Positions 1 through 21,808 of a DNA stretch of 64,000 bases are shown one piece after another (the first letter of the stretch is position 1; each line of letters begins with the position of its first letter). The position numbers and the translations under genes were made by a program. The DNA lies in assembly GCA_030390025.1 (NCBI GenBank), contig JASTWF010000180.1:744001-808000 (forward strand), given 5' to 3'. This stretch comes from Squalus acanthias. Taxonomy: Eukaryota. A model generated the notes under the pieces. The model searched no databases. It worked only from the letters and a program-made list of their open reading frames with translations, and was not told the origin of the DNA.

Positions 1-4
1 AGGG

Positions 5-32
5 AGTTTTTGTTAAAGGGGGCAATGCTGTG
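5..32 (+). promoter_or_regulatory. 12-bp-spacer recombination signal sequence (representative; one precedes each J)
   Basis: Nonamer AGTTTTTGT (5-13), 12-bp spacer, heptamer TGCTGTG (26-32). Consensus is GGTTTTTGT-12-CACTGTG. Confidence 0.95.
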
Positions 33-92
33 TGAACTATGGAGCTAACAAGCCTATCTTTGGAAAAGGGACAAAGTTAACTGTGCAGCCAA
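33..92 (+). CDS. TRAJ: TCR alpha J segment J1: NYGANKPIFGKGTKLTVQP
   Basis: RSS 5-32, FGKG motif, donor GTAGGT at 93. Confidence 0.95.
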
Positions 93-1001
93 GTAGGTAT
101 TCATTAATAACTACAGACTGTCTATTTACTGACATATATGTGTGTGTTCTCTGCACTGCCTACAATGTATCAAATCATTTCTCTATATGTTCAATTAATC
201 CTGAATATTGGAACATTTAAGCCGCTTCTTATTGGAGTATGGATATGATAATTCAAGGATTAAGAGTGATGATTCTGATCAGTGCAGTTAATTGTCTACC
301 ATTATGCACCTTATTAACCTAAAATGATGATCTGAATTTAACACGATTACCTGGATCCAAATAAAGTGCTGTATTAACCAACAACAACAACTTGTATTAT
401 CAAACAAAATTTCACACCGAGCCACAAAAGAAATATTAGAATGGCTGATCCAGAGCTTACTCCAGCACGTAGGTTTTATGGAGAATATTAAAAGAGGAGA
501 GAGAAATAAAGAGGTGGAGAGGTTTAGGGAGAGAATGACAGCCCTTGGTGCCTAGGTCGGTGGACCAACCGACTGAAGTTGGGAGAGAAAAGTGTCAGAA
601 ATCATAACTTGGCTCAATTGCTGGCCGCCCATCCTGTGTGTTGGAAAGTTGTGAGATGGATCCCCACTCTAGAGATGAAACATATAATCCAAGATGATAA
701 TCCAGGGAAGTACTGAGGGAGGGTTCCACTTTCAGAGATAATTGATAATCTATTGGAGGTTTCTGATGAAATTATATATAAATGGTAGCCCAACATTTTT
801 AATGAAAAAAAAGAAATATGTCGTGGCTAGGCTACAAACAGGATACAAAATAGTCATGTGTGCATAATAATTATCAATCGTCATTTAAAATGCTTCCATA
901 ATAATGGGATTCGGTGATCCCAAGTATTCAAATATAACCGCCAGACAGAATGTACTAAAGTTAGTCTGAAGGGAGTTTTTGTTAAAGGCCGCAATGCTGT
1001 G

Positions 1002-1064
1002 TGAACTATGGAGGTACCGAAAAGCTTACCTTTGGAAAAGGGACAAAGTTAACTGTGGAGCCAA
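1002..1064 (+). CDS. TRAJ: TCR alpha J segment J2: NYGGTEKLTFGKGTKLTVEP
   Basis: RSS 974-1001, FGKG, donor GTAGGT. Confidence 0.95.
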
Positions 1065-2021
1065 GTAGGTATTCATTAATAACTGTAGACTGTCTATTTA
1101 CTTATATATATGTGTGTGTGTGTGTTCTCTGCACTGCCTGCAATGTACGAAATAATTCGAAATAATTACTTTATATGTTACTTAACTCCTGAATATTGGA
1201 ACATTTATGTCGCTTCTTATTGGAGTAAGCATATGAAAATTCAGTTATTTTGTGATGGTTATGGGAAGTGCAGTTAATTGTCTGCCATTGTGCCACTTAT
1301 TAACCGAAAATGATTATTTGAATTGAACATGATAACCTGCATCCATTTTCCTTTGCGAAAATGCCAAGTAATGTTGTGTATTAAACAACAACAACATCTT
1401 GTATTATCAAACAAAATTTCACACCGAGCCACATAAAGAAATATTAGAATGGCTGATCGAAAGCTTGCTCCAGCACGTAGGTTTTAAGGAGATTATTAAA
1501 GAAGGAGAGATAAATAAAGAGGTGGAGAGGTTTAGGGAGAGAATGCCTGTCCTTGGAGCCTCGGTAGCTGAACCAACCGACTGATGTTTGGAGAGAAAAG
1601 TGTCAGAAATCATAACTTTGCTCAATTGCTGGCAGCTCAACATTTGCGTTGGAAAGTTGTGAGATGTATCCACACTCTAGAGAAATATATAATCCAAGAT
1701 GATAGTGCAGGGAAGTACTGAGAGACTGGAGCATTATCAGAGGTACTTGGCAAGCTTTCAGAGAGTTCTGATGAACTGATATATAAATGGTAGCCCAACA
1801 TTTTTAATGAACAATTAATAAGTTACTCTTGGTCTATAAACAGGCTTAAAAAAGTCATGTGTGCCCAATAATTCGCAATGTTCATTTAAAGCGATTTGTA
1901 CAGATAGTTCCAAAATAATGCATTTCAGTGATACCAAGTATTCAAATATAACCGCCAGACAGAGCAGCAATGTACTAAAGTTAGTCTGAAGGGAGTTTTT
2001 GTTAAAGGGGGCAATGCTGTG

Positions 2022-2081
2022 TGAATGTTGGAGCTAACAAGCCTATCTTTGGAAAAGGGACAAAGTTAACTGTGGAGCCAA
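2022..2081 (+). CDS. TRAJ: TCR alpha J segment J3: NVGANKPIFGKGTKLTVEP
   Basis: RSS 1994-2021, FGKG, donor GTAGGT. Confidence 0.95.
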
Positions 2082-2660
2082 GTAGGTATTCATTAATAAC
2101 TATAGACTGTCTATTTACTTACATATATGTGTGTGTTCTCTGCACTGCCCACAATGTATCAAATCATTTCTCTATATGTCCAATTAATCCTGAATATTGG
2201 AACATTTATGCCGCTTCTTATTGGAATATGGATATGATAATTCAATTATTTTGTGATGGTTATGGGAAGTGCAGTTAATTGTCTGCCATTATGCACCTCA
2301 TTAAATTAAAATGATGATCTGAATTGAACATGATTACCTGGATCCATTTTCCTTTGGGGAAAATGCCAAATAATGTTGTGTATTAAACAACAACAACAAC
2401 TGAATTCTGATGAACTGATATATAAATGGTTGCCCTACATTTTTAATGAACAACTAATAAGTTATTCTTGGGCTATTAACAGACTTAAAAATGTCATCTG
2501 TGCCCAATAATTATCAATGGTCATTTAAAACGATTTGTAAAGATAGTTTCAAAATAGTGGCATTGAGTGATCCCAAGTATTCAATTATAACCGCCAGACA
2601 GAGCAGCAATGTACTAAAGTTAGTCTGAAGGGAGTTTTTGTTAAAGGCCGCAATGCTGTG

Positions 2661-2720
2661 TGAATACTGGAGCTGATAAGCTTATCTTTGGAAAAGGGAC
2701 AAAGTTAACTGTGTTGCCAA
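2661..2720 (+). CDS. TRAJ: TCR alpha J segment J4: NTGADKLIFGKGTKLTVLP
   Basis: RSS 2633-2660, FGKG, donor GTAGGT. Confidence 0.95.
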
Positions 2721-3297
2721 GTAGGTATTCATTAATAACTATAGACTGTCTAGTTACTTACATATGTGTGTGTGTTCTCTGCACTGCTGACAATGTAGCA
2801 AATCATTTCTCTATATGTTCAATTAATCCTGAATATTGGAATATTTATGTCGCTTCTTATTGGAGTAAGCATATGGTAATTCAATTATTTTGTGATGGTT
2901 ATGGAAGTGCAGTTAAATGTCTGCCATTATGCACCTCATTAATTCAAAATGATGATCTGAATTGAACATGATTACCTGGGTCCATTTTCCTTTGGGGAAA
3001 ATGCCAAATAATGTTGGATATTAAACAACAGCAACAACTGAATTCTGATGAACTGATATATAAATGGTTGGCCTACACTTTTAATGAACAATTAATAAGT
3101 TATTCTTGGGCTATAAACAGGTTAAAAATGTCATCTGTGCCCAATAATTATCAATGGTCATTTAAAACGATTTGTACAGATAGTTTCACGATAATAGGAT
3201 TGAGTGATACCAAGTATTCAAATATAACCGCCAGACAGAGCAGCAATGAACTAAAGTTAGTCTGAAGGGAGTTTTTGTTAAAGGCCGCAGTGCTGTG

Positions 3298-3357
3298 TGA
3301 ATGATGGAACTTACAAGCTTATCTTTGGAAAAGGGACAAAGTTAACTGTGTTACCAA
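3298..3357 (+). CDS. TRAJ: TCR alpha J segment J5: NDGTYKLIFGKGTKLTVLP
   Basis: RSS 3270-3297, FGKG, donor GTAGGT. Confidence 0.95.
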
Positions 3358-3714
3358 GTAGGTATTCATTTATGACTATAGACTGTCTAGTTACATACAT
3401 ATATGTGTGTGTTCTCTGCACTGCCTACAATGTACCAAATCATTTCTCTAAATGTTCAATTAATCCTGAATAGTGGAACATTTATGCCGCTTCTTATTGG
3501 AGTATTGATATGATAATTCAAGTATTATGAGTGATGGTTCTGATCAGTCCAGTTAATTTTCTGCAATTATGCATCGTCTTAATCTAAAATGATGATCAAA
3601 ATTGAACACGATTACCTCCATCCATTTCCCTTTGGAAAAACGCCAAATAATGTTGTGTATTAAACAACAACAATAACTTGCATTATCAAACAAAATTTCA
3701 AACCGAGCCACATA

Positions 3715-3947
3715 CAGATATCTTAGAAATACTCAGCAGATCAGGCAGCATCTGTAGAGAGAGAAACAGAGTTAGCGTTTCAGGTCGATGACCCTTCGTC
3801 AGAACTGGCGAAATTATGACGAAGGTTCATCCACCTGAAACGTTAACTCTGTTTCTCTCTCTACAGATGCTGCCTGACCTGCTGAGGATTTCCAGGATTT
3901 TCTGTTTTTATTTCAGATTTCCAGCTTCCGCAGTATTTTGCTTTTGT
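3715..3947. mobile_element. Penelope-like element terminal (pLTR) fragment inserted as an inverted pair
   Basis: Absent from the other array units. Same sequence as the tail next to the GIY-YIG-coding fragment at 15837-16468. Arms 3726-3801 and 3817-3892 are reverse complements. Confidence 0.85.
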
Positions 3948-4543
3948 AAAGAAATATTAGAATGGCTGATCAAAAGCTTGCTCCTCCAACACGTAGATCT
4001 TAAGGAGCGTCTTAAAGGAGGAGAGTGAGATACAGAGGTGGAGAGGTTTAGGGAGAGAATGACAGCCCTTGGTGCCTCGGTAGCTGAACCAACCGACTGA
4101 AATTGGGAGAGAAAAGTATCAGAAATCATAACTTGGCTCAATTGCTGGCCGCCCATCCTGTGTGTTGGAAAGTTGTGAGATGGATCCCCACTCTGGAGAT
4201 CAAACGTATAATCCAAGATGATAATCCGGGGAAGTACTGAGGGAGGGTTCCACTTTCAGAGATACTTGGAAATCTATTGGAGAGTTCTGATAAACTGATA
4301 TATAAATGGTAGCACAACATTGTTAATGAAAAAATTAAATAATTCATGCTTAGGTTATAAACAGGCTAAAAATAGTCATGTGTACATAATAATTATCAAT
4401 GGTCATTTGAAATGGTTTCTACAGATAGTTTCACAATAATGGGATTGAGTGAGAACAAGTATTCAAATATAAACCGCCAGACAGAGCAGGAATGTACTAA
4501 AGTTAGTCTGAAGGGAGTTTTTGTTAAAGCCCGCAATGCTGTG

Positions 4544-4603
4544 TGAATGATGGAACGAACAAGCTTACCTTTGGAAAAGGGACAAAGTTAACTGTGGAGC
4601 CAA
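4544..4603 (+). CDS. TRAJ: TCR alpha J segment J6: NDGTNKLTFGKGTKLTVEP
   Basis: RSS 4516-4543, FGKG, donor GTAGGT. Confidence 0.95.
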
Positions 4604-5178
4604 GTAGGTATTTATTAATAACTACAGACTGTCTATTTACTTACATATATGTGTATGTTCTCTGTACTGCCTACAATGTATCAAATCATTTCTCTATATG
4701 TTCAATTAACCCTGAATATTGGAACATTTATATCGCTTCTTATTGCAGTATGGATATGATAATTCAGTTATTTCGTGATGGTTCTGATCAGTGCAGTTAA
4801 TTGTCTGCCATTGTGAACCCATTAACTTAAAATGATGATCTGAATAGAACATGATTACCTGGATCCATTTTCCTTTGGGGAAAATGCAAAATAATGTTGT
4901 GTATTAAACAACAACAACAACTGAATTCTGATGAACTGATATACGAATGGTTGGCCTACATTTTTAATGAACAATTAATAATTATTCTTGGGCTATAAAC
5001 AGGTTAAAAAGTCACTTGTGCCCAATAATTCTCAATGGTCATTTAAAATGGTTTGTACAGATAGTTTCACAATACTGGGATTGAGTGATACCAAGTATTC
5101 AAATATAACCGCCAGACAGAGCAGTAATGAACTAAAGTTAGTCTGAAGGGAGTTTTTGTTAAAGGCCGCAGTGCTGTG

Positions 5179-5241
5179 TGAATGATGGAGCTACAGATAA
5201 ACTTATCTTTGGAAAAGGGACCAAGTTAACTGTGGAGCCAA
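5179..5241 (+). CDS. TRAJ: TCR alpha J segment J7: NDGATDKLIFGKGTKLTVEP
   Basis: RSS 5151-5178, FGKG, donor GTAGGT. Confidence 0.95.
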
Positions 5242-6184
5242 GTAGGTATTAATTAATAACTATAGACTGTCTATTTAATTACATATCTGTGTGTGTTCTC
5301 TGTACTGCTGACAATGTATCAAATCATTTCTCTAAATGTTCAATTAATCCTGAATATTTAAACATTTATGTCGCTTCTTATTGGAATATGGATATGATAA
5401 TTCAGTTATTTTGTGATGGTTATGGGAAGTGCAGTTAATTGTCTGCTACTGTGCATCTTATTAACCTAAAATGATGATCTGAATTGAGCACGATTGCTTG
5501 GATCCATTTCCCTTTGGGAAAATGCCAAACAATTTAGTGTATTAAACAACAACAACAACTTGAATTATCAATTAAAATTTCACACCGAGCCACATAAAGA
5601 AATATTAGGACAAGTGACCAAAAAACTTGGTGCAGAACCTAGGTCTTAAGGAGCGTCTTAACAGAGAAGAGAGGCATAGAAGTGGAGAGGTTTAGGGAGA
5701 GAATGACAGCCCTTGGTGCCGAGGTAGGGTGGATCAACCGACTGACATTGGGAGAGAAAAGTGTGAGAAATCATAACTTGGCTCAATTGCTGGCCACCCA
5801 TCCTGTGCGTTGGAAAGTTGTGAGATGGATCCCCACTCTAGAGATGAAACATCTAATCCAAGATGATAATCCAGGGAAGTACTGAGGGAGGGTTCCACTT
5901 TCAGAGGTTCTTAGAAATCTATTGGAGAGTTCTGATGAACTGATATATAAATGGTAGCCCTACATTTTTAATGAACAATGTATAAGTTATCCTTGGGCTA
6001 TCAACGGGCTTAAAAAGTCATGTGTGCCTAATAATTCTCAATGGTCATTTATAATGATTTGTGCAGATAGTTTCACAATAAAGGGAATGAGTGATAGCAA
6101 GTATTCAAATATAACCGCCAGACAGAGCAGCAATGAAGTAAAGTTAGTCTGAAGGGAGTTTTTGTTAAAGCCCGCAATGCTGTG

Positions 6185-6244
6185 TGAATGATGGAACTCA
6201 GAAGCTTATCTTTGGAAAAGGGACAAAGTTAACTGTTGAGCCAA
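6185..6244 (+). CDS. TRAJ: TCR alpha J segment J8: NDGTQKLIFGKGTKLTVEP
   Basis: RSS 6157-6184, FGKG, donor GTAGGT. Confidence 0.95.
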
Positions 6245-7151
6245 GTAGGTATTCATTAATAACTACAGACTGTCTATTTAGTTATATATGTGTGTGTGTT
6301 CTCTGTACTGCTGACAATGTACCAAATCATTTCTCTATATGTTAATTTATTCCTGACTATTGGAACATTTATGCTGCTTCTTATTGCTGTATGGATATGA
6401 TAATTCAGATATTATGAGTGATGGTTCTGATCAGTGCAGTTAATTGTCTGCCATTGTGACCTTATTAACCTAAAATGATGGTCTGAATTGAACATGATTA
6501 CTTGCATCAATTTTTCTTTGGGAAAACGCCAAATAATGTTGTGAATGAAACAACATCAGCAATTTGCATTATCAAACTAAATTTCACACCGAACCACATA
6601 AAGAAATATTAGGACAGGTGACCAAAAGCTTGGTGCAGCACGTATGTTTTAAGGAGCGTCTTAAAGGAGAAGAGAGACATAAAGAGGTGGAGAGACTTAG
6701 GGAGAGAATCAACTTTTGGAGGGAAAAATGTCAGAAATCATAACTTGGCTCAATTGCTGGCCGCCCATCCTGTGTGTTGGAAAGTTGTGAGATGGATCCA
6801 CACTCTAGAGATGAAACATATAATTCAAGATGATAATCCAGGGAAGTACAGAGAGACTGGAGCACTATCAGATGTACTTGGCAATCTTACAGAGAGTTCT
6901 GGTGAAAGATACATAAATGGTAGCCCAACATTTTAAATGAACAACTAATAAATTATACTTGGGCTATAAGCAGGTTTAAGATAGTCATGTGTGTTTAATA
7001 ATTCTCAATTATCGTTTAAAATGGTTTATACAGATAGTTTCACAATAATGGGATTGAGGGATCCCAAGTATTCAGATATAACCGCCAGACAGAGCAGGAA
7101 TGTACTAAAGTTAGTCTGAAGGGACTTTTTGTTAAAGGCCACAATGCTGTG

Positions 7152-7214
7152 TGAATGTTGGAGCTGGCCGCAAGCTTATCTTTGGAAAAGGGACAAAGTT
7201 AACTGTGGAACCAA
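7152..7214 (+). CDS. TRAJ: TCR alpha J segment J9: NVGAGRKLIFGKGTKLTVEP
   Basis: RSS 7124-7151 with variant nonamer ACTTTTTGT, FGKG, donor GTAGGT. Confidence 0.93.
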
Positions 7215-7647
7215 GTAGGTATTCATTAATAACTATAGACTATCTATTTACTGATATATATGGGTGTGTTCTCTGTACTGCTGACAAGGTATTAAATCAT
7301 TTCTCTAAATGTTCAATTAATCCTGACTATTGGAACATTTATGCCGCTTCTTATTGGAATATGGATATGATAATTCAGGTATTATGTGATGGTTATGGGA
7401 AGTGCAGTTAATTGTCTGCCATTGTGAACCTCATTAAGTTAAAATGATGATCTGAATTGAACACGATTACCTGGATCCATTTTCTTTTGGGGAAAACGCC
7501 AAACAATGTTGTGTATTAAACAACAACAACAACTTGCATTATCAAACAACATTTCACACCGTGTCACATAAAGTAATCTTAGGACAGGTGACCAAAGGAT
7601 TGGCGTAGAACATAGGTTTTAAGGAGCGTCTTAAAGGAGGAGAGATA

Positions 7648-8023
7648 CATAGAATCATAGAATCGTAGAAAGTTACAGCACGGAAGGAGGCCATTTCGGC
7701 CCTTCGTGTCCGCGCCGGCCAACAAAGAGCTATCCTGCCTAATCCCACTTCCCAGCTCTTGGTCCGTAGCCCTGCAGGTTGGAGCATCCCAAGTGCAAAA
7801 CCAAGTACTATTTAAATGTGGTTAGGGTTCCTGCCTCTACCACCCTTTCAGGCAGCGAGTTCCAGACCCCCACAACCCTCTGGGTGAAGAAATTTCCCCT
7901 GAAATCCTCTCTAAACCTTCCCCCAATTATTTTAAATCTGTGCCCCCTGGTTTTTGACCCCTCTGCTAAGGGAAATAGGTCCTTTCTATCCACTTTATCT
8001 ATGCCCCTTATAATTTTATACAC
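7648..8023 (-). mobile_element. CR1 LINE 3' fragment
   Basis: Minus-strand ORF YKIIRGIDKVDRKDLFP…TRGH…FFTQRVVGVWNSLP (CR1 ORF2 C-terminus), plus a (CATAGAAT)n tail. Confidence 0.9.
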
Positions 8024-8539
8024 TAGATAAAGAGGTGGAGAGGTTTAGGGAGAGAATGCCAGACCTTGGTGCCGAGGTCGGTGGACCAACCGACTGACAT
8101 TCGGAGAGAAAAGTGTCAGAAATAATAACTTTGCTCAATTGCTGGCCGCCCATCCTGTGCGCTGGAAAGTTGTGAAATGGCTCCCCACTCGAGAGATGAA
8201 ACATATAATCCAAGATGATAATCCAGGGCAGTACTGAGGGAGGGTTCCACTTTCAGAGATACTTGGAAATCTATTGGAGAGTTCTGATGAACTGATATAT
8301 AAATGGCAGCCCAACAGTGTTAATGAAAAAGAAATAAGTCATGTTTAGGCTATAAACAGGCTAAAAAAATGTGCATGTTAGTATCATAATTATCAATGAT
8401 CATTTTAAACGGTTTGTACAGATAGTTTCACAATAATGGGATTCAGTGAGACCAAATATTCAAATATAACCGCCTGACAGAGCAGCAATGAACTACAGTT
8501 AGCCTGAAGGGAGTTTTTGTTAAAGCCCGCAATGCTGTG

Positions 8540-8599
8540 TGAATGATGGAACTAAGAAGCTTACCTTTGGAAAAGGGACAAAGTTAACTGTGGAGCCAA
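8540..8599 (+). CDS. TRAJ: TCR alpha J segment J10: NDGTKKLTFGKGTKLTVEP
   Basis: RSS 8512-8539, FGKG, donor GTAGGT. Confidence 0.95.
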
Positions 8600-9539
8600 G
8601 TAGGTATTCATTAATGATTATAGACTGTCTATTTACTTACATATATGTGTGTGTTCTCTGCACTGCCCATAATGTACCAAATAATTTCTCTATATGTCCA
8701 ATTAATCCTGAATAGTGGAACATTTATGCCGCTTCTCATTGGAGTAAGCATACGATAATTCAGATATTTTGTGATGGTGATGGGAAGTGCAGTTAATTTT
8801 CTGTCATGGTGCACCTCTTAACTTAAAATGATGATCTGAATAGAACACGATTACCTGGATACATTTTCCTTCGGGAAAATGCAAAATAATGTTGTGTATT
8901 AAACAACAACAACTTGTATTATCAAACAAAATTTCTCACCGAACCACTTAAAGAAATATTAGGACAGGTGACCAAATGCTTGGTCCAGAACCTAGGTTTT
9001 AAGCAGCGTCTTAAAGGAGGGGAGAGAAATAAAGAGGTGGAGAGGCTTAGGGAGAGAATGACAGCCCTTGGTGCCGAGGTAGGGTGGACCAACCGACTGA
9101 CACTGGGAGAGAAAAGTGTGAGAAATCATAACTTGGCTCAATTGTTGGCCGCCCATCCTGTGTGTTGGAAAGTTGTGAGATGGATCCCCACTCTAGAGAT
9201 GAACCATATAATCCAAGATGATAATCCAGGGAAGCACTGAGGGAGGGTTCCAATTTCAGAGATAATTGGAAATCTATTGGAGGGTTCTGATGAACTGATA
9301 TATAAATGGTAGCCCTACATTTTTAATGAACAATTAATAAGTTAATCTTGGGCTATTAACAGGCTTAAAAAGTTATGTGTGCCTAATAATTATCAATGGT
9401 CATTTAAAATGATTTGTACAGATAGTTTCACAATAAAGGGAATGAGTGATACCAAGTATTCAAATATAACCGCCAGACAGAGCAGGGATGAAGTAAAGTT
9501 AGTCTGAAGGGAGTTTTTGTTAAAGCCCGCAATGCTGTG

Positions 9540-9599
9540 TGAATGCTGGAACTCAGAAGCTTATCTTTGGAAAAGGGACAAAGTTAACTGTGGAGCCAA
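9540..9599 (+). CDS. TRAJ: TCR alpha J segment J11: NAGTQKLIFGKGTKLTVEP
   Basis: RSS 9512-9539, FGKG, donor GTAGGT. Confidence 0.95.
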
Positions 9600-10507
9600 G
9601 TAGGTATTCATTAATAACTACAGACTGTCTATTTAGTTATATATGTGTGTGTGTGTTCTCTGTACTGCTGACAATGTACCAAATCATTTCTCTATATGTT
9701 AATTTATTCCTGACTATTGGAACATTTATGCTGCTTCTTATTGCTGTATGGATATGATAATTCAGATATTATGAGTGATGGTACTGATCAGTGCAGTTAA
9801 TTGTCTGCCATTGTGACCTTATTAACCTAAAATGATGGTCTGAATTGAACATGATTACTTGCATCAATTTTTCTTTGGGAAAACGCCAAATATTGTTGTG
9901 AATGAAACAACATCAGCAATTTGCATTATCAAACTAAATTTCACACCGAACCACATAAAGAAATATTAGGACAGTGACTAAAAGCTTGGTGCAGAACGTA
10001 TGTTTTAAGGAGCGTCTTAAAGGAGAAGAGAGACATAAAGAGGTGGAGAGACTTAGGGAGAGAATCAACTTTTGGAGGGAAAAATGTCAGAAATCATAAC
10101 TTGGCTCAATTGCTGGCCGCCCATCCTGTGTGTTGGAAAGTTGTGAGATGGATCCACACTCTAGAGATGAAACATATAATTCAAGATGATAATCCAGGGA
10201 AGTACAGAGAGACTGGAGCACTATCAGATGTACTTGGCAATCTTACAGAGAGTTCTGGTGAAAGATACATAAATGGTAGCCCAACATTTTAAATGAACAA
10301 CTAATAAATTATACTTGGGCTATAAGCAGGTTTAAGATAGTCATGTGTGTTTAATAATTCTCAATTATCGTTTAAAATGGTTTATACAGATAGTTTCACA
10401 ATAATGGGATTGAGGGATCCCAAGTATTCAGATATAACCGCCAGACAGAGCAGGAATGTACTAAAGTTAGTCTGAAGGGAGTTTTTGTTAAAGGCCACAA
10501 TGCTGTG

Positions 10508-10570
10508 TGAATGTTGGAGCTGGCCGCAAGCTTATCTTTGGAAAAGGGACAAAGTTAACTGTGGAACCAA
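10508..10570 (+). CDS. TRAJ: TCR alpha J segment J12: NVGAGRKLIFGKGTKLTVEP (same coding sequence as J9)
   Basis: RSS 10480-10507, FGKG, donor GTAGGT. Confidence 0.95.
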
Positions 10571-11476
10571 GTAGGTATTCATTAATAACTATAGACTATC
10601 TATTTACTGATATATATGGGTGTGTTCTCTGTACTGCTGACAAGGTATTAAATCATTTCTCTAAATGTTCAATTAATCCTGACTATTGGAACATTTATGC
10701 CGCTTCTTATTGGAATATGGATATGATAATTCAGGTATTATGTGATGGTTATGGGAAGTGCAGTTAATTGTCTGCCATTGTGAACCTCATTAAGTTAAAA
10801 TGATGATCTGAATTGAACATGATTACTTGCATCAATTTTTCTTTGGGAAAACGCCAAATAATGTTGTGAATGAAACAACATCAGCAATTTGCATTATCAA
10901 ACTAAATTTCACACCGAACCACATAAAGAAATATTAGGACAGGTGACCAAAAGCTTGGTGCAGAACGTATGTTTTAAGGAGTGTCTTAAAGGAGAAGAGA
11001 GACATAAAGAGGTGGAGAGACTTAGGGAGAGAATCAACTTTTGGAGGGAAAAATGTCAGAAATCATAACTTGGCTCAATTGCTGGCCGCCCATCCTGTGT
11101 GTTGGAAAGTTGTGAGATGGATCCACACTCTAGAGATGAAACATATAATTCAAGATGATAATCCAGGGAAGTACTGAGAGACTGGAGCACTATCAGATGT
11201 ACTTGACAATCTTTCAGAGAGTTCTGGTGAAAGATACATAAATGGTAGCCCAACATTTTAGATGAACAATTAATAAGTTATACTTGGGCTATAAGCAGGT
11301 TTAAGATAGTCATGTGTGTTTAATAATTCTCAATTATCGTTTAAAATGGTTTGTACAGATAGTTTCACAATAACGGGATTGAGGGATCCCAAGTATTCAG
11401 ATATAACCGCCAGACAGAGCAGGAATGTACTAAAGTTAGTCTGAAGGGAGTTTTTGTTAAAGGCCGCAATGCTGTG

Positions 11477-11539
11477 TGAATGTTGGAGCTGGCAACAAGC
11501 TTATCTTTGGAAAAGGGACAAAGTTAACTGTGGAGCCAA
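11477..11539 (+). CDS. TRAJ: TCR alpha J segment J13: NVGAGNKLIFGKGTKLTVEP
   Basis: RSS 11449-11476, FGKG, donor GTAGGT. Confidence 0.95.
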
Positions 11540-11971
11540 GTAGGTATTCATTAATAACTATAGACTGTCTATTTACTGACATATCTGAGTGTGTTCTCTG
11601 TACTGCTGACAAGGTATCAAATCATTTCTCTAAATGTTCAATTAATCCTGACTATTGGAACATTTATGCCGCTTCTTATTGGAATATGGATATGATAATT
11701 CAGGTATTATGTGATGGTTATGGGAAGTGCAGTTAATTGTCTGCCATTGTGAACCTCATTAAGTTAAAATGATGATCTGAATTGAACACGATTACCTGGA
11801 TCCATTTCCCTTTGGGAAAATGCCAAACAATGTTGTGTATTAAACAACAACAACAACTTGCAATATCAAACAACATTTCACACCGTGTCACATAAAGTAA
11901 TCTTAGGACAGGTGACCAAAGGATTGGCGTAGAACATCGGTTTTAAGGAGCATCTTAAAGGAGGAGAGATA

Positions 11972-12346
11972 CATAGAATCATAGAATCGTACAAAGTTAC
12001 AGCACGGAAGGAGGCCATTTCGGCCCATCGTGTCCGCGCCGGCCAACAAAGAGCTATCCTGCCTAATCCCACTTCCCAGCTCTTGGTCCGCAGCCCTGCA
12101 GGTTGGAGCATCCCAAGTGCACATCCAAATACTTTTTAAATGTGGTTAGGGTTCCTGCCTCTACCACCCTTTCAGGCAGCGAGTTCCAGACCCCCACAAC
12201 CCTCTGGGTGAAGAAATTTCCCCTGAAATCCTCTCTAAACCTTCCACCAATTATTTTAAATCTGTGCCCCCTGGTTTTTGACCCCTCTGCTAGGGAAATA
12301 GGTCCTTTATATCCACTTTACCTATGCCCCTCATAATTTTATACAC
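11972..12346 (-). mobile_element. CR1 LINE 3' fragment (duplicate of 7648-8023)
   Basis: Same sequence and same insertion point within the J unit as 7648-8023. Confidence 0.9.
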
Positions 12347-12862
12347 TAGATAAAGAGGTGGAGAGGTTTAGGGAGAGAATGCCAGAACTTGGTGCCGAGG
12401 TCGGTGGACCAACCGACTGACATTCGGAGAGAAAAGTGTCAGAAATAATAACTTTGCTCAATTGCTGGCCGCCCATCCTGTGCGCTGGAAAGTTGTGAAA
12501 TGGCTCCCCATTCGAGAGATGAAACATATAATCCAAGATGATAATCCAGGGCAGTACTGAGGGAGGGTTCCACTTTCAGAGATACTTGGAAATCTATTGG
12601 AGAGTTCTGATGAACTGATATATAAATGGTAGCCCTACATTGTTAATGAAAAAGAAATAAGTCATGTTTAGGCTATAAACAGGCTAAAAAAGTGTGCATG
12701 TTAGTATCATAATTATCAATGATCATTTTAAACGGTTTGTACAGATAGTTTCACAATAATGGGATTCAGTGAGACCAAATATTCAAATATAACCGCCTGA
12801 CAGAGCAGTAATGAACTAAAGTTAGCCTGAAGGGAGTTTTTGTTAAAGGACGCAATGCTGTG

Positions 12863-12922
12863 TGAATGATGGAACTAAGAAGCTTACCTTTGGAAAAGGG
12901 ACAAAGTTAACTGTGGAGCCAA
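12863..12922 (+). CDS. TRAJ: TCR alpha J segment J14: NDGTKKLTFGKGTKLTVEP (same coding sequence as J10)
   Basis: RSS 12835-12862, FGKG, donor GTAGGT. Confidence 0.95.
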
Positions 12923-13850
12923 GTAGGTATTCATTAATAACTACAGACTGTCTATTTACTGACATATATGTTCTCTGAACTGCCGACAATGTATCAAATC
13001 ATTTCTCTATACGATCAATTAATCCTGACAATTGAAACATTTATACCGCATCTTATTGCAGTATGGATATGATAATTCAAGTATTTTGTGATGGTTATGG
13101 GAAGTGCAGTTAATTGTCTGCCATTGTGAACCTCATTAAGTTAAAATGATGATCTGAATTGATCATGATTACCTGGATCCATTTTCCTTTGGGGAAATGC
13201 CAAACAACATTAAACAACAACAACTTGAATTATCAAACAAAATTTCACACCGAGCCACATAAAGAAATATTAGGACAGGTGACCAAATGCTTGGTCCAGA
13301 ACGTAGGTCTTAAGGAGCGTCTTAAAGGAGGGGAGAGAAATAAAGAGGTGGAGAGGCTTAGGGAGAGAATGACAGCCCTTGGTGCCGAGGTAGGGTGGAC
13401 CAACCGACTGACACTGGGAGAGAAAAGTGTGAGAAATCATAACTTGGCTCAATTGTTGGCCGCCCATCCTGTGTTGGAAAGTTGTGAGATGGATCCCCAC
13501 TCTAGAGATGAAACATATAATCCAAGATGATAATCCAGGGATGCACTGAGGGAGGGTTCCAATCTCAGAGATAATTGGAAATCTATTGGAGGGTTCTGAT
13601 GAACTGATATATAAATGGTAGCCCTACATTTTTAATGAACAATTAATAAGTTATTCTTGGGCTATAAACAGGCTTAAAAACGTCACGTGTGCCTAATAAT
13701 TATCAATGGTCATTTAAAATGGTTTGTACAGATCGTTTCACAATAATGGGATTGAGTGAGACCAAGTATTCAAATATAACCTGCCAGAAAGAGCAGCAAT
13801 GTTCTGAAATTAGTCTGAAGGGAGTTTTTGTTCAAGGCCGCAATGCTGTG

Positions 13851-13904
13851 TGAACTATGACAAGCTTATCTTTGGAAAAGGGACAAAGTTAACTGTGTTG
13901 CCAA
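13851..13904 (+). CDS. TRAJ: TCR alpha J segment J15: NYDKLIFGKGTKLTVLP
   Basis: RSS 13823-13850, FGKG, donor GTAGGT. Shortest family member (54 nt). Confidence 0.95.
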
Positions 13905-14845
13905 GTAGGTATTCATTAATAACTATAGACTGTCTATTTCCTTACATATATGTGTGTGTTCTCTGTACTGCCCACAATGTACCAAATCATTTCTCTGATA
14001 TGTTCAATTAATCCTGAATATTGAAACATTTATGTCGCTTCTTATTGGAGTAAGCATATGATAATTCAATTATTTTGAGATGGTGATGGGAAGTGCATTT
14101 AATTGTCTGCCATTGTGCCACTTATTAACCTAAAATGATGATCTGAATAGAACATGATTACCTGCATCCATTTTCTTTGGGAAAATGCCAAATAATGTTG
14201 TGTATTAAACAACAACAACAACTTGTATTATCAATCAAAATTTCACACCGAGCCACAAAAAAAAATATTAGAATGGCTGATCGAAAGCTTGCTCCAGCAC
14301 GTAGGTTTTAAGCAGAGTAGTAAATGAGGAGAGAGAAATAAAGAGGTGGAGAGGTTTGGGGAGAGAATGATGGACCTTGGTGCCTCGGTAGCTGAACCAA
14401 CCAACTGAAGTTTAGAGAGAAAAGTGTCAGAACTAATAACTTTGCTCAATTGCTGACAGCCCATCCTGTGCGTTAGAAGGTTGTGAGATGTATCCGCACT
14501 CTAGAGAAATATATAATCCAAGATGATAATCCAGGGAAGTACAGAGACACTGTAGCACTTTCAGAGGTACTTGATAATCTTTCATAGAGCTCTGATGAAA
14601 GATATATAAATGGTTGCCCTACATTTTTAATGAACAATTAATAAGTTATTCTTGGGCTATTAGCAAGCTTTAAAAAGTCTTGTGCGCCTAATAATTATCA
14701 ATAGTCATTTAAAATGGTTTGTCCAGATAGTTTCAAAATACTGGGATTGAGTGATACCAAGTATTCAAATATAACCGCCAGACAGAGCAGGAATGTACTA
14801 AAGTTAGTCTGAAGGGAGTTTTTGTTAAAGGCCGGCAATGCTGTG

Positions 14846-14908
14846 TGAATGCTGGAGCTACCAATAAGCTAACCTTTGGAAAAGGGACAAAGTTAACTGT
14901 GTTGCCAA
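14846..14908 (+). CDS. TRAJ: TCR alpha J segment J16: NAGATNKLTFGKGTKLTVLP
   Basis: RSS 14817-14845 with 13-bp spacer, FGKG, donor GTAGGT. Confidence 0.92.
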
Positions 14909-15214
14909 GTAGGTATTCATTAATAACTATAGACTGTCTATTTACTTACATATATGTGTGTGTTCTCTGCACTGCCTGCAATGTATCAAATCGTTTCTCT
15001 ATATGTCGAATTAATCTGCAATATTGGAACATTTATGCCGCTTCTTATTGGGGTAGGGATATGATAATTCAGATATTATGAGTGATGGTTCTGATCAGTG
15101 CAGTTAATTGTCTGCCATTGTGCACCTTAGTAACATAAAATTATTATCTGAATTGAACACGATTACCTGAATCCATTTCCCTTTTGCAAAATGCCAAACA
15201 ATGTGGGGTAAAAA

Positions 15215-16558: not shown

Positions 16559-16618
16559 TGAGTAACGGACCACCCAAGATTGTATTTGGAAATGGCACAA
16601 AAATAACTCAGGGGCTTA
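16559..16618 (+). CDS. TRAJ: TCR alpha J segment J17 (atypical): SNGPPKIVFGNGTKITQGL
   Basis: Heptamer CATTGTG 16552-16558, weak nonamer GGGTTTGTC 16531-16539, FGNG, donor GTAAGT. Confidence 0.8.
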
Positions 16619-16900
16619 GTAAGTATCAGCCCTTTAAACCACAAAAGAAGATATTTTTCAGGGCCATTCATTTTTCTTGCAAATTGGAGTATAGCCATCA
16701 ATTACATTATTTTGGGACTATAATATGCCCCACTGGAAGGGTGATTTGGAAGCAGAATTATACTTATGACAAATTGACAATAAATGTATAAGGAATGCAT
16801 TCTAATTGGAGCTCAATACAGTTAGTGACATAATAAACTGAGGTGCAAATGGAGTTCCTTGTTATTACCATGGGGTTTTTGAAAGTGGCGCATTGCTATG

Positions 16901-16963
16901 AGACCCCTTGAACCAAAACTAAACTCACCTTTGGAAGTGGGATCACAATCTTTGTAGAATCCA
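16901..16963 (+). pseudogene. TRAJ: Pseudo J-alpha J18: TP*TKTKLTFGSGITIFVES
   Basis: Heptamer TGCTATG has lost the essential GTG, and there is an in-frame TGA near the 5' end. FGSG and the GTAAGT donor remain. Confidence 0.85.
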
Positions 16964-17086
16964 GTAAGTATTTATTTTAATTTATATGCTGCGGTAAGTT
17001 AAGTTGTATATAAGCAAGTGATAGGCATAAATATATACATGACCAACATGATTAGAGTCGACATGGAGAAAGATGGAGAAATCTTC

Positions 17087-17285
17087 AAAAGTAAAATACT
17101 GCGGATGCTGGAAATCTGAAATGAAAACAGAAAATGCTGGAAATACTCAGCGGGTCAGGCAGCATCTGTGGAGAGAGAAACAGAGTTAACGTTTCAGGTC
17201 GATGACCTGTCATCAGTACTGGAAGAAGTTAGAGATTTAACAGATTATTAGCAAGTACAAAGCCGGACAAAAGGGAGTTGGAGGT
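17087..17285 (-). mobile_element. Penelope-like pLTR fragment (paralogue at ~21933-22112)
   Basis: AAATACTGCGGATGCTGGAAATCTGAAA…GTTTCAGGTCGATGACC…CATCAG, the reverse complement of the 16340-16468 tail. Confidence 0.85.
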
Positions 17286-17458
17286 GTTACTAAATATTAA
17301 TTAAAAGGGAAGACGAGTAACACAATTCTCTCTATGCTACACGGTATTATAACAAGATTAGAATTCTCTATTCGGTAACCTGGACAGATCTGTATTCTGG
17401 TGAGCATTAGACCCGAGAATTAGGAGAATAGGTTTTTGCACTGGCATATAATACTGTG

Positions 17459-17515
17459 CGGGTTATGGCAATGAGCTCACATTCGGACCTGGAACCAAGT
17501 TAACAGTAATACCAA
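17459..17515 (+). CDS. TRAJ: TCR alpha J segment J19: GYGNELTFGPGTKLTVIP
   Basis: RSS GGTTTTTGC-12-TACTGTG 17431-17458, FGPG, donor GTAAGT. Confidence 0.93.
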
Positions 17516-17846
17516 GTAAGTTAAGTATTGTAATATGTAGACTCAGTAAAATAATAGTTATTAGATGACGACTTAGAATGTTAGTTACAAAATCCGAACT
17601 GCAGCTATCTGCTTTGTCCCATTGAAACGCTTAGCCAAGTCATGTAATACAGTTCTCGAGCTTGCTGCGTGTTCATTGCCATTGGTCATCTGCAACTAAA
17701 TAGGTTGGGAATAATTACAGATATCGGGTGGAATGACGATACACACTCAATACAATATTATTATAATGGTGGGATGAGTTAACCAACATTAAACAAATAA
17801 AACTGTCAAGGAATGTCTTTTGATAATTTACATTGATGCCTCTGTA

Positions 17847-18056
17847 NNNNNNNNNNNNNNNNNNNNNNNNNNNNNNNNNNNNNNNNNNNNNNNNNNNNNN
17901 NNNNNNNNNNNNNNNNNNNNNNNNNNNNNNNNNNNNNNNNNNNNNNNNNNNNNNNNNNNNNNNNNNNNNNNNNNNNNNNNNNNNNNNNNNNNNNNNNNNN
18001 NNNNNNNNNNNNNNNNNNNNNNNNNNNNNNNNNNNNNNNNNNNNNNNNNNNNNNNN
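17847..18056. other. N-run (masked or unresolved simple repeat). Others at 23275-23541, 29475-29744, 31437-31682, 33417-33648, 38973-39114, 39213-39347.
   Basis: Runs of N flanked by (TAGA)/(TACA)/(TG) microsatellite-like sequence; the J-region runs sit at homologous positions in duplicated units. Confidence 0.85.
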
Positions 18057-18207
18057 AGACAGAAACATAGATAGACAGACAGATGCAAAGATATATGTAA
18101 ATTAACCTCAGGTAAAATAGTTGGCTGTTACTTTAAATTTAATCGGTAAGATAGACAAAGAAGAAGAATTAACTCAGAAGGCTTTTGTTAGTCAGTGTAG
18201 GACCTTG

Positions 18208-18261
18208 TGAATGATTGGAACTACAAGCTCATTTCTGGGACTAGACTAATCGTGGGACCCA
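18208..18261 (+). pseudogene. TRAJ: J-alpha-like ORF J20 lacking FG: NDWNYKLISGTRLIVGP
   Basis: Nonamer GGCTTTTGT 18180-18188, defective heptamer GACCTTG, 6-nt loss of Phe-Gly, donor GTGAGT intact. Confidence 0.8.
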
Positions 18262-18466
18262 GTGAGTATTGTGCTAGGAAAGAATAATGACAGAAATCTG
18301 ATTGAAAGAAATTAAAGAATTATCATGAGTAATCCAACAAAGATAACAATTAGATTGTTTACTTATTTCAATTCTTTGAAATAAAAATGAGAATGAATGT
18401 GTAGTGACGGTGGTACATCGGGAAGCAGCACTATCCTGAGTTCTTGTGAAGGGATAAATTACTGTG

Positions 18467-18529
18467 TGAAATCGGGAGGATATGAAAAAATGGTATTTGG
18501 AGGTGGCACCAAGCTCATTGTTAATCCCG
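18467..18529 (+). CDS. TRAJ: TCR alpha J segment J21: KSGGYEKMVFGGGTKLIVNP
   Basis: RSS AGTTCTTGT-12-TACTGTG 18439-18466, FGGG, donor GTAAGA. Confidence 0.93.
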
Positions 18530-18871
18530 GTAAGATCTCAATAATAGTTACTCAAAATTACCCTGTAAATTAGTTTGCAAGCAAGTCAAAATTCTGGTCA
18601 AAATAACGTACAGGTGGCCAATGGACACCAAGTAGATCTAGCCAAAATTAAACTATAGTTTTACATTCTGTAACGTGGTAGCGTTAATGTCTGAGACCGA
18701 CTGCACCTATATTGATTTGAATGAGCTGGGAATAATGCAAGATTAGCCACTTGTTAATATTTTAACTTGGAATATTGATAATCCATAACTATAACATACA
18801 GTTGATTCCGTATCTAGTCAATATGCTTGGCATCAGATAAAAGGGTTTATGCACTGGTATGTAATGCTGTG

Positions 18872-18928
18872 TGAGTAATCTCAATAAGCTAATATTTGGA
18901 TCTGGGACCAAACTAATCGTGCAACCTA
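18872..18928 (+). CDS. TRAJ: TCR alpha J segment J22: SNLNKLIFGSGTKLIVQP
   Basis: RSS GGTTTATGC-12-TGCTGTG 18844-18871, FGSG, donor GTAAGT. Confidence 0.93.
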
Positions 18929-19029
18929 GTAAGTGAAGTTTAATTCTGTACTTTTTGTCATGATGATGATAGTCAAAATATCGTTTTGTTAATAAGTATC
19001 ATCAGTTCGTTAAATTAACAGTAAATGAT

Positions 19030-20028
19030 AACTATCAGGAAAGACTGAACAGGCTGGGGGTAATTTCATCATTTCTCAAGAACAGAGAAGGCCGAGAGGT
19101 GGCCTGACAGGGGTCTTTAAAATTATGAAGGGGTTTGATAGAGTAGGCGTAGAGAAGATGTTTCAATTTGTGGGGGACATCAAAACTAGGGGACATCCAT
19201 ATTAGATTGTCACTAACAAATGCAGTAAAAATTCAGGGGAAACTTTTTTACCCAGAGAGTGTTGAGAGTGTGGAACTCGCTACCACATGGAGTAGTTGAT
19301 GGGAATAGCATAGATGAATTTAACATAAGCACATGAGGAAGAAAGGATTAGAAGGATATGCATAAAGGGTTCGATAAAGTAGGGAGGGAGGAGGCACAGG
19401 CCAGTTGGGCTGAATGGCCTGTTTCTGTGCTTGAAATTAGATGTAATTTATAAAGCGCTGGTTAGGTCACAACTGAGTATTGCGTCCAGTTCTGGTCACC
19501 ACACTTTAGGAAGGATGTGAAGGCCCTTTGAGTGGGTGCAGAGGAGATTTACCAGAATGGTTCCGGGGATGGGGAACCTTAGCTACAAGGACAGGTTGGA
19601 GAAGCTGGATTTGTTTTCATTAGAGCAAAGGTGGTTGAGGGGTGATTTGATAGAGGTGTATAAGATTATGACAGGTTTGGATAGGCTAGACGGGGAAAGG
19701 CTGTTCCCACTAGTTGATGGTACAAGGACTAGGGGACACAGATTTAAGGTTTTGGGCAAGAGATACAGGGGGGATGTGAGGAAAAACTTTTTTATGCAGC
19801 GAGTGGTGATGACCTGGAACTCGCTGCCGACGGTAGTGGTGGAAGCGGAGACACTCAATGTTTTCAAGGGGAGACTGGATAGGCACTTGAGGGAAATAAA
19901 CTTGCAGGGCTACGGGGATAGAGCGGAGGAATGGGACTGACTGGATTGCTCTACAGAGAGCTGGCACGGACTCATTGGGCCGAATGCCCTCCTGCTGTGC
20001 CATATGACTCTATGACTCTATGACTCTA
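19030..20028 (+). mobile_element. Two tandem CR1 LINE 3' fragments (older ~19030-19445; younger ~19449-20028)
   Basis: ORF QRRFTRMVPG…LRGDLIEVYKIM…RVVMTWNSLP, with a (CTATGACT)n tail. Confidence 0.9.
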
Positions 20029-20205
20029 ATTGTATGTACAAGTTATTTGGTATGGAGATATTAACTGTTTGCCCATCATAAATTCAAAGGTAATCGTTCT
20101 AAAACTTAACTCAAAAAACGGATGGTTCCTTAAGAAATAACAAGTGATGTAATGTCTGGGAATGTCTGGCTGGGGAAGGTTTTAGTATCAGTATATCAGG
20201 CTGTG

Positions 20206-20265
20206 TGAATGTTGCTAATAATAAGCTGATCTTTGGAACTGGGACCAGGCTCAATGTTATACCAA
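20206..20265 (+). CDS. TRAJ: TCR alpha J segment J23: NVANNKLIFGTGTRLNVIP
   Basis: RSS GGTTTTAGT-12-GGCTGTG 20178-20205, FGTG, donor GTAAGT. Confidence 0.93.
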
Positions 20266-20798
20266 GTAAGTGAGATGTTTAAGGATGTCTGTTTTATGTC
20301 TTAGAACATAAAAGAGAAGCATGCCATCAAATTAATTGAAATGTGGATCAAATTAAGTTTTACATCATTTGTCAAAAATCATAACTTTGCTCGGTTGCTG
20401 TCAGCCCCTCCTGTGCGTTAGAAAGTTGTGAGATGGATCCTCGCTCTATACCTAAAACATGTCATCCAAATAGATAGTTCAGGGAAGTACTGAGGGAGGG
20501 TTCCACCTTCAGAACTACTTGGGAAGCATTTGGGGAGTTCTGGTGACCTGATAGATAAATGGTAGCCTTAGCTTTTTAATGAACAAGAAACAAGTTATGC
20601 TTGGGTTAGACACAGAATAAATAAAGAAAATAGTCATGTGAGCCCAATAATTATCAATTATCATTTAAAATGGTTTCTGCACAGAGTTTCACAGTAATGG
20701 ATTGAGTGATTCCAAGTATCAAATATAACCGCCAGACAGAGCAGCAATGTACTACAGTTAGTCTGAAGGGAGTTATTGCAAAAGGCCGCAATGCTGTG

Positions 20799-20861
20799 TG
20801 ACTGCTGGAGCTGACTATAAGCTTATCTTTGGAAAAGGGACAAAGTTAACTGTGGAGCCAA
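20799..20861 (+). CDS. TRAJ: TCR alpha J segment J24 (orphan member of the amplified family): TAGADYKLIFGKGTKLTVEP
   Basis: RSS AGTTATTGC-12-TGCTGTG 20771-20798, FGKG, donor GTAGGT. Flanks match the 1-kb unit. Confidence 0.92.
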
Positions 20862-21745: not shown

Positions 21746-21808
21746 AGACTCTTTGAAGGAAGACTAAGCTCACCATTGGAAGTGGGATCAAAACCTTTGT
21801 AGAATCCA
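21746..21808 (+). pseudogene. TRAJ: Pseudo J-alpha J25 (paralogue of J18)
   Basis: Heptamer disrupted, in-frame TGA, FGSG changed to IGSG, donor GT changed to AT. Confidence 0.8.

Follow-up and report, generated by a model that had tools for sequence, protein, structure and literature searches.

A nested, mosaic tandem array of J-alpha segments in Squalus acanthias whose copies differ most in CDR3-forming codons

A large part of the CDR3-alpha loop comes from J-alpha segments, and arrays of old, mutually divergent J segments cannot show how its inherited residues arise. Expanded TRAJ subgroups in fish are already known. For instance, the channel catfish is described as having 125 TRAJ, among them subgroups of 12, 7 and 6, and a TRA diversity that relies on minimally trimmed J segments (PMC8656973), and many TRAJ of the Atlantic salmon are duplicated (PMC8559430). 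In the passages of these two reports on which we draw, there is no head-to-tail array of single-J units and no test of divergence within the J, in contrast to the locus described here. The TRAJ of cartilaginous, basal and teleost fishes share a fixed RSS phase and a TG microhomology (Giorgetti et al. 2023, PMC10322711), and the shark J counts of 63-156 in the supplement of that study already imply lineage-specific expansion; its relevant sections deal with RSS phase and joining rather than with the divergence of J paralogues. Human TRAJ alleles (TRAJ37) indicate that germline J residues in CDR3-alpha can be under selection and thus offer a precedent for selection on J residues, although these are alleles of single genes under balancing selection, as presented in the portion of that work used here (PMC12393570), whereas the shark case involves tandem paralogues. 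We found no prior report of CDR3-biased divergence of TRAJ paralogues in a literature search that was thin on subscription journals. A 17-copy family of nested ages provides a natural experiment on the origin of new inherited CDR3 residues.

The array, its signals and its constant gene

The window (the whole 64,000-nucleotide stretch analysed) opens inside a forward-strand tandem array of 16 RSS-J units (1-15190; spacing 635-1388 bp), the start of which lies before the window start. Each unit carries a 12-spacer RSS, an open J and a GT donor, and one orphan member lies apart from the array. The heptamers of the 16 tandem units are at 26, 995, 2015, 2654, 3291, 4537, 5172, 6178, 7145, 8533, 9533, 10501, 11470, 12856, 13844 and 14839, and that of the orphan, which is the 24th J-like element when pseudo-Js are included in the count, is at 20792. 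In order, and all on the forward strand, the units are J1 with its 12-RSS (5-92, J 33-92; NYGAN..KPI..VQP), J2 (974-1064, J 1002-1064; NYGGTE..KLT..VEP), J3 (1994-2081, J 2022-2081; NVGAN..KPI..VEP), J4 (2633-2720, J 2661-2720; NTGAD..KLI..VLP), J5 (3270-3357, J 3298-3357; NDGTY..KLI..VLP), J6 (4516-4603, J 4544-4603; NDGTN..KLT..VEP), J7 (5151-5241, J 5179-5241; NDGATD..KLI..VEP), J8 (6157-6244, J 6185-6244; NDGTQ..KLI..VEP), J9 (7124-7214, J 7152-7214; NVGAGR), J10 (8512-8599, J 8540-8599; NDGTK..KLT), J11 (9512-9599, J 9540-9599; NAGTQ..KLI..VEP), J12 (10480-10570, J 10508-10570; NVGAGR), J13 (11449-11539, J 11477-11539; NVGAGN), J14 (12835-12922, J 12863-12922; NDGTK..KLT), J15 (13823-13904, J 13851-13904; NYD..KLI..VLP; 54 nt) and J16 (14817-14908, J 14846-14908; NAGATN..KLT..VLP). 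The orphan (20771-20861, J 20799-20861; TAGADY..KLI..VEP) belongs to a unit that shares about 82% identity with the array. Within J2, window position 1017 is A in sample X1, which changes Thr to Asn in a CDR3 codon.

An earlier note on this DNA had read the family as 16 tandem copies plus an orphan, all open and with intact donors, and this was borne out, with an FGXG motif, an open frame and a GT donor in 17/17. Its count of 15 distinct peptides is likewise correct, 14 coming from the 16 tandem Js (J9 is identical to J12, and J10 to J14) and the fifteenth from the orphan. The family also makes up half of the usable Js, as had been stated (17 of 34 intact Js), a proportion that applies to the window only because the window begins within the array. 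With a period limit of 500, Tandem Repeats Finder fails to detect the array. The family Js are 54, 60 or 63 nt long. The RSS spacer is 12 bp in 16/17 (13 bp in J16), and the heptamer has two mismatches relative to what we take to be the consensus, with the three J-adjoining bases kept. The signals are not uniform, that is, the nonamer of J9 is changed and that of the orphan has three mismatches to consensus. A TG start is present in 17/17 family Js and in 14 of the 17 non-family intact Js (the other three start with CG), and each of the 34 intact Js is free of stops and has a length that is a multiple of three; the TG at J positions 1-2 and the fixed RSS phase of the family Js, as well as the lengths, match the primordial fish-type J-alpha of PMC10322711. 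The 17 non-family Js and four broken J-like elements (near 16900, 18210, 21745 and 23648) occupy 16559-33948 on the forward strand, and the former include five duplicate families (29186/31145/33120, 29988/31971/33885, 17452/22272, 18460/23898 and 18865/24293).

The identification of the segments as TRAJ is upheld by the 12-spacer RSS, the FGXG motif, the GT donor and the position of a long J array before a constant gene. The 34 intact Js lie upstream of this TCR-alpha-type gene, also on the forward strand, which comprises constant exon 1 (38345-38644), a C1-set Ig domain recognized from Pfam PF07654 (E=1.3e-9), its exon ends and a splice from a family-type J end; a probable connecting-peptide exon (38736-38783), as read from sequence; and a transmembrane exon of TCR alpha/delta type (39791-39897) that aligns to the C-terminal end of alpha chains and has 22 PDB matches, all named TCR alpha, TCR delta or TCR chains. 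That the gene is alpha rather than delta is suggested by the many-J layout and by an alignment that reaches the final residue of alpha chains. Protein searches with constant exon 1 in both length classes returned no match and no named shark homologue, an Atlas search with the same exon returned generic C1-set clusters only, and Rfam returned 0 matches.

Duplication, recombination and soundness of the assembly

Expansion from one ancestral unit, as the earlier note proposed, is supported, but its description as one young expansion is not, since the copies are nested and range from blocks 97-98% identical to about 20% divergence. Specifically, a higher-order block at 6433-8648 (forward strand) is 97.4% identical to 10757-12971, both sharing a repeat insert of about 370 bp that starts at 7649 and 11973, respectively, and a further forward-strand block at 5914-7470 is 98.4% identical to 9269-10826. 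Three short units, those of J4, J5 and J7, share a deletion with junctions at 2397, 3035 and 4918. Pairwise flank distances between copies extend from 0-3% up to 21%, and, together with the nesting, indicate that duplication was repeated rather than a single burst. Recombination has made mosaics of the units (PHI-type p=1e-4). Distances in the upstream flank show no correlation with those in the downstream flank (r=0.15, p=0.19), and 81 of 246 site pairs within spacer plus J are incompatible. Recombination between units is therefore clear, as had been suggested, but discrete conversion tracts are barely shown, with a global p<0.05 in 2/120 pairs and neither tract covering the J.

The nearly identical blocks also raise the question of an assembly artefact, in which too many copies would be counted because haplotypes or mis-joined reads had been placed one after another. 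Identity in three blocks is as high as 97-98%, including stretches of 485 and 338 bp without any difference, samples X1 and X5 agree against the window in one-base differences at 805, 13780 and 13999, and none of the contigs listed spans units. On the other hand, most units differ by 5-20%, compared with 0.6% between samples outside the array (17/2664), the blocks are nested and carry the insert and the deletion in differing combinations, and unit-specific contigs occur along the array in two other DNA samples (at least 9 pieces; 24 differences in 1738 nt). We consequently regard such an artefact as very improbable, and it could touch J11-J14 at most.

In addition, tandem substitutions are present in the copies, a point of likeness to the hot-spot enzymes discussed below, but tandem differences are also enriched over whole duplicated blocks (2/5 blocks, p<=0.001).

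Distribution of differences within the J and its flanks

Among the family copies, pi reaches 0.288 from J nucleotide 6 to the codon preceding K, compared with 0.131 in the upstream and 0.109 in the downstream flank; thus, the diversity of the CDR3-forming codons is about twofold above the flanks, as the earlier note would lead one to expect. Within this variable stretch, codons 1 and 3 are nearly fixed. At the 5' end, change is lowest in the first five J nucleotides, which adjoin the cut site (pi 0.065). The K-L-I/T codons (pi 0.105) and the last two J codons (pi 0.174) vary as well. The claims that FGKGTKLTV is invariant and that the family diversified almost only in CDR3 codons hold for the protein but not for the DNA, where FR4 (pi 0.009) has two singleton silent changes and flank pi is 0.11-0.13. 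Gene conversion is not needed to account for the uniform framework because the fourfold sites of family K-L-I plus FR4 changed at 3/7, near the overall flank rate of 0.54 changes per site. Allele counts, for which the orphan and J1 (which lacks an upstream flank) were excluded, show 19 changes over the 18 CDR3 columns, whereas the flanks average 9.9 (random-column p=0.002). J1 was also excluded from the flank-distance and PHI-type analyses, the codon models, the null simulations and the tract test.

CDR3-biased divergence is not peculiar to the 17-copy family; the five other J duplicate families behave alike: their own flanks predict 9.8 CDR3 changes where 20 are seen (p=0.003), and 18.9 framework changes would be expected where there are 3 (7/9 pairs used; one flank was also left out as non-homologous, and the Fisher tests took rounded values of fractional counts). 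Within the CDR3 of these families, pN is 17.5/78 and pS is 2.5/24 (0.10, flank level). These values speak for selection, but the difference between them is not significant (p=0.39), which counts against it. The pseudo-J controls contradict each other: a broken pair with a poor heptamer has 0/15 changes at the 5' end, and a second pair has 5/21 there versus 4/43 further along.

Selection, local rate and relaxed constraint

The copies, the nested blocks, the mosaic structure, the uneven diversity and its recurrence in five other families are directly shown. From these we favor, as a somewhat probable account, that repeated unequal crossing-over is the likely means by which one TRAJ unit grew into a mosaic tandem array, and that the roughly doubled change in codons 2 and 4-6 relative to the flanks probably reflects selection for copies with new CDR3-alpha residues. 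The near-identical RSS-J-donor core and the unit of about 1 kb would promote misalignment and exchange, exchange would recombine existing modules into new peptides, the TG start and multiple-of-three lengths would be kept as favoring in-frame microhomology joining (consistent with the relevant parts of PMC10322711), and new 5' residues would be retained as they widen the inherited repertoire in the roughly half of joints without added nucleotides. The nested homology blocks, mosaic units and excess of antigen-facing change resemble V-gene birth-and-death by unequal crossing-over, for which selection on CDR1/2 is described in PMC12393570 and homology units in PMC8656973; the array differs from V-gene homology units in that the unit holds a 60-nt J whose variable codons are also trimmed somatically.

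Consistent with selection, pN in the CDR3 codons is 0.28-0.31 and pS over the whole J is 0.10-0.125, i.e., flank level, and the positive-selection model M2a is preferred over M1a with likelihood-ratio statistics (LRT) of 22.3 and 22.7 on two trees, omega of about 7 and posteriors of 0.79-1.0 for codons 2, 4, 5 and 6. These models are our own small implementation, applied to 16 sequences of 20 codons with an ambiguous indel codon alignment. Counting against selection, pN/pS inside the CDR3 codons is only 1.1-1.6, and identical Js are kept in two pairs of copies. Setting omega to 1 and letting about a quarter of the codons evolve 7-11-fold faster gives a fit equal to or better than that of M2a (higher lnL on 3/4 trees, 0.04 lower on the fourth). 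Of the pooled fourfold third positions, 3/7 changed, which is the rate also found at first and second positions (27/60). Diversifying selection, as advanced in the earlier note, stands as the leading cause, but it is equalled in fit by the neutral high-rate model, and neither the codon models nor the fourfold sites separate it from a locally raised mutation or exchange rate.

Relaxed constraint under birth-and-death, whereby CDR3 codons drift, the framework is purified and recombination shuffles a few variants into the look of a library, might in principle suffice. The most variable 12-column flank window nearly equals the J (pi 0.284 vs. 0.285), 12/491 flank windows match the CDR3 allele count, pN/pS within CDR3 is near 1, some constraint may act on the proximal flanks as well (0.30-0.42 changes per site vs. 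0.54 overall), and the second broken J pair also changed preferentially at its 5' end. However, 46 null simulations (omega=1, three-block recombination) gave a largest LRT of 3.7 against the observed 22, and 0/46 attained the observed diversity of 0.274 (simulated maximum 0.270); the twofold excess recurs in the five other families; and the doubled allele counts are a quantity that recombination cannot inflate. We therefore consider this account improbable.

Slightly less improbable, although still unlikely in our view, is a local germline hot spot, in which the 6-20 nt that follow a functional RSS would mutate or be exchanged at a higher rate than the flanks, for example through germ-cell RAG nicking or repair or through errors at crossovers, with relaxed constraint rather than positive selection preserving the changes. 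The fit of the neutral high-rate model favors it, as do the CDR3 fourfold sites (3/7 changed vs. 5/48 in the rest of the J, p=0.07) and the variable RSS spacer (pi 0.13), and the unchanged 5' end of the poor-heptamer pair is what RSS dependence predicts, although selection predicts the same. Candidate enzymes come from the RAG-like activity at Ig light chains in shark germ cells, as described in the part of PMC2193156 used here, and from somatic hypermutation of shark TCR alpha (PMC5931798); however, the former produces genes that are already joined, but the RSSs of these Js are intact, and the latter is somatic and was studied in V regions. A hot spot is further at odds with the low change in J nucleotides 1-5 beside the cut site, with the flank-level silent CDR3 change of the other families, and with the possibility that recombination, by counting one silent change repeatedly on a tree, could itself favor the neutral high-rate model. 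Flank WRC/GYW sites show no enrichment (30/51 vs. 59/110, p=0.61), and hence no AID-motif bias was found in the flanks, the J being too short for such a test. Open-and-shut RAG joints are disfavored because J nucleotides 1-5 are conserved. More doubtful still is a targeted germline process, in which functional RSSs would draw germ-cell nicking or recombination that both multiplies J units and alters or reshuffles the 6-20 nt after the signal, building a heritable CDR3 library faster than neutral mutation. If it were true, shark germline RAG activity would extend from joining genes to diversifying unjoined segments; if selection is true, the "somatic" CDR3 loop has a germline part evolving like CDR1/2. 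On present evidence, the array clearly illustrates a familiar kind of evolution in a class of segments that has received little study.

Finally, the view of the family as a germline CDR3 library holds only in part, because shark TRA joints carry inserted nucleotides, i.e., a mean of 2.5 in the bamboo shark repertoire, with only 45.7% of joints free of additions (supplement of PMC10322711). Among the contig matches listed, which are assembled contigs only, there was no V-joined piece. Runs X6 and X7 gave no match over 9470-9635, and X6 showed zero depth in many bins that contain a J, blanks that carry no weight as to expression. One contig of run X8 passes from the donor at 9599 into 38345, joining a family-type J end to constant exon 1, and, by our guess, probably derives from RNA; its J end type does not pinpoint an individual copy, being common to 8/17 copies.

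The J array, its constant gene and the growth of one family

The window contains the 3' part of a TCR J array plus its constant gene. Six-frame and recombination signal (RSS) scans revealed 34 intact Js and four broken J-like elements within 1-33,948, and the constant gene comprises an exon encoding a C1-set domain (38345-38644, E=1.3e-9) and a TCR alpha/delta-type exon (39791-39897), whose 22 PDB matches all carry the designation TCR alpha, TCR delta or TCR chain, the alignment extending to the final residue of alpha chains. Given these matches and the many-J layout, we take the constant gene to be TRAC. Inspection of ORFs in 40000-64000 identified no neighbouring gene 3' of it; the ORFs there resemble retroelement fragments (the longest of 535 aa, 61047-62654), and a 36-bp minisatellite lies at 59382-59929. 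Seven N runs of 135-270 bases each fall within 17847-39347, several at corresponding places of duplicated units.

One framework, FGKGTKLTV, is common to 17 Js, 16 of them in tandem (J1-J16, 1..15190) and one an orphan at 20799. All 17 are open, start with TG, measure 54, 60 or 63 nt and end at a GT, and together they encode 15 distinct peptides; the TG start and fixed phase of J-alpha are accounted for in PMC10322711. The RSS spacer is 12 bp throughout except in J16 (14846-14908), where it is 13 bp, and the nonamer is altered in J9 (7152-7214) and the orphan. Since contigs of two other DNA samples (X1 and X5) share one-base deletions relative to the window at 805, 13780 and 13999, the 13-bp spacer (14817-14845) could represent either an allele or a fault of the assembly.

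Units are spaced 635-1388 bp apart, one deletion junction is common to three short units, one insert is common to two long units, and blocks of 1.0-2.2 kb at 97.4-98.4% identity exist alongside inter-unit flank distances of up to 21%; therefore, growth of the array was repeated and nested. The description in the earlier note of a "recent" array from "one young expansion" is not borne out as worded, as the ages are nested and recent applies only in a relative sense. Taking 7e-10 per generation, the rate of the epaulette shark (CI 1.4-14.1e-10, PMC10587355), we infer that 2% divergence would correspond to about 14 million generations, which the upper limit of the rate would shorten to 7 million, on a clock distorted by exchange between copies.

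Recombination was detected by a PHI-type test (p=1e-4, 128 informative sites), and the distances between units in the upstream flank did not correlate with those in the downstream flank (r=0.15, p=0.19). Among 246 site pairs of the spacer and J, 81 were incompatible; hence, the shuffling of modules that had been described is real. Recombination between units is supported, but the suggested tract test, significant for only 2/120 pairs, does not separate the proposed gene conversion from unequal crossing-over. Adjacent (tandem) differences are enriched between 5914-7470 and 9269-10826 (6 vs 0.6 expected) and between 29745-31436 and 31721-33412 (11 vs 2.2 expected); this enrichment is mostly non-coding, and the other three of five duplicated blocks were not significant.

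Distribution of diversity along the J units

The family is a real, nested and recombinant expansion of one TRAJ unit, in which change in the CDR3-forming codons exceeds that of the flanks about twofold. Across 16 copies, pi was 0.131 in the upstream and 0.109 in the downstream flank. Within J it was 0.065 over nt 1-5, 0.288 between nt 6 and the codon preceding K, 0.105 in K-L-I/T, 0.009 in FGKGTKLTV and 0.174 in the last two codons; from nt 6 on, the 5' J codons are more diverse than the flanks, as anticipated. Allele counts for J2-J16 gave 19 changes in the 18 columns of the CDR3 stretch vs a flank mean of 9.9 (random-column p=0.002), a count reached by 12 of 491 contiguous flank windows. The five unrelated J families of the window (16559..33948) showed 20 CDR3 changes vs 9.8 expected (p=0.003, 7/9 pairs) and 3 framework changes vs 18.9 expected (7/9 pairs), pairs that share a member being not fully independent. 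In our literature search, largely confined to journals outside subscription, no paper describing a CDR3 bias in the divergence of TRAJ paralogues was found.

A three-copy unit of ~2 kb with two Js each occupies 29186-33948, one pair being 96% identical; its 63-nt J family carries six changes, all replacements and none in the framework. An older segmental duplication (16655-19446 / 21542-24904, 78-83% identical) accounts for five J pairs, three of them intact and two broken, and the family orphan is located between its two copies. The broken pair 18210/23648 has no FG of FGXG and a poor heptamer, is still in frame, and differs at 2 of 52 nt.

Selection, hot spot or drift

In the CDR3 codons, pN was 0.28-0.31 and pS 0.19-0.25, with pS of the whole J at 0.10-0.125. 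Site models in our own implementation favored M2a over M1a (LRT 22.3 and 22.7), with codons 2, 4, 5 and 6 in a class of omega~7; the highest LRT among 46 null simulations including recombination was 3.7. Alternatively, the excess might be driven by a local hot spot, given that an omega=1 class with a faster rate fits as well as the selection model on all four trees tried, and that changes were seen at 3/7 of the pooled fourfold sites of CDR3 codons, beside 27/60 at first and second positions. However, silent CDR3 change in the other families stays at flank level (2.5/24), with replacement change at 17.5/78, counts that lean toward selection and are not significant alone (p=0.39). Hence, we moderately favor selection on inherited CDR3 residues as the likeliest cause, ahead of a hot spot, which appears unlikely; relaxed drift seems slightly less probable still, its simple form being disfavored. 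The two broken J pairs gave contrary outcomes on 5' change. The diversifying selection previously invoked is accordingly retained as the leading candidate cause of the CDR3 excess, one that the equal fit of the omega=1 class does not set apart from a locally raised rate.

Published repertoires and other samples

J-alpha counts range from 63 to 156 across five sharks, and 45.7% of bamboo shark joints lack additions, with a mean of 2.5 inserted nucleotides (PMC10322711); N and P nucleotides are frequent in alpha joints of nurse shark (PMC5931798). Therefore, the influence of the germline CDR3-alpha library envisaged in the earlier note would be confined to a portion of the repertoire. Other sources view high J number as compensating for stereotyped joining (PMC13433984), describe teleost TRAJ subgroups and duplicates (PMC8656973 and PMC8559430) and report human TRAJ alleles under selection (PMC12393570); the available text of PMC12227049 holds nothing on J.

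Contigs of a further run, X8 (guessed to be RNA and labelled organism B), were compared with J11 (9540-9599) only. One of them extends beyond the donor at 9599 to join constant exon 1 and, judging from depth steps, appears to match 9570-9599, an end common to 8 of the 17 copies; none of the contigs listed showed a V-J joint. Another covers RSS and J (9494-9599), its match ending at the donor with two extra letters, and could represent an unrearranged J transcript spliced onward, two letters being no proof. X8 also contains two RSS-attached family-type Js with 5' codons apparently unlike every window copy, and X8 and X1 contain further Js of similar flank or framework with no counterpart found among the window Js; thus, the family and its variation likely extend beyond the window.

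Contigs of X1 and X5 provided depth in 30/30 bins of 1-17800, unit-specific pieces included, which is no proof of unit order or copy number. They differ from the window at 24/1738 nt (1.4%) in the array (1-15190, nine listed pieces) vs 17/2664 (0.6%) just outside (15470-17800; p=0.015), and additional paralogues or copy-number variation might account for the higher value. Of 81 differences, 40 are listed, and the only one of these to affect a family J is at 1017, where Thr becomes Asn in the CDR3 part of J2 (1002-1064).
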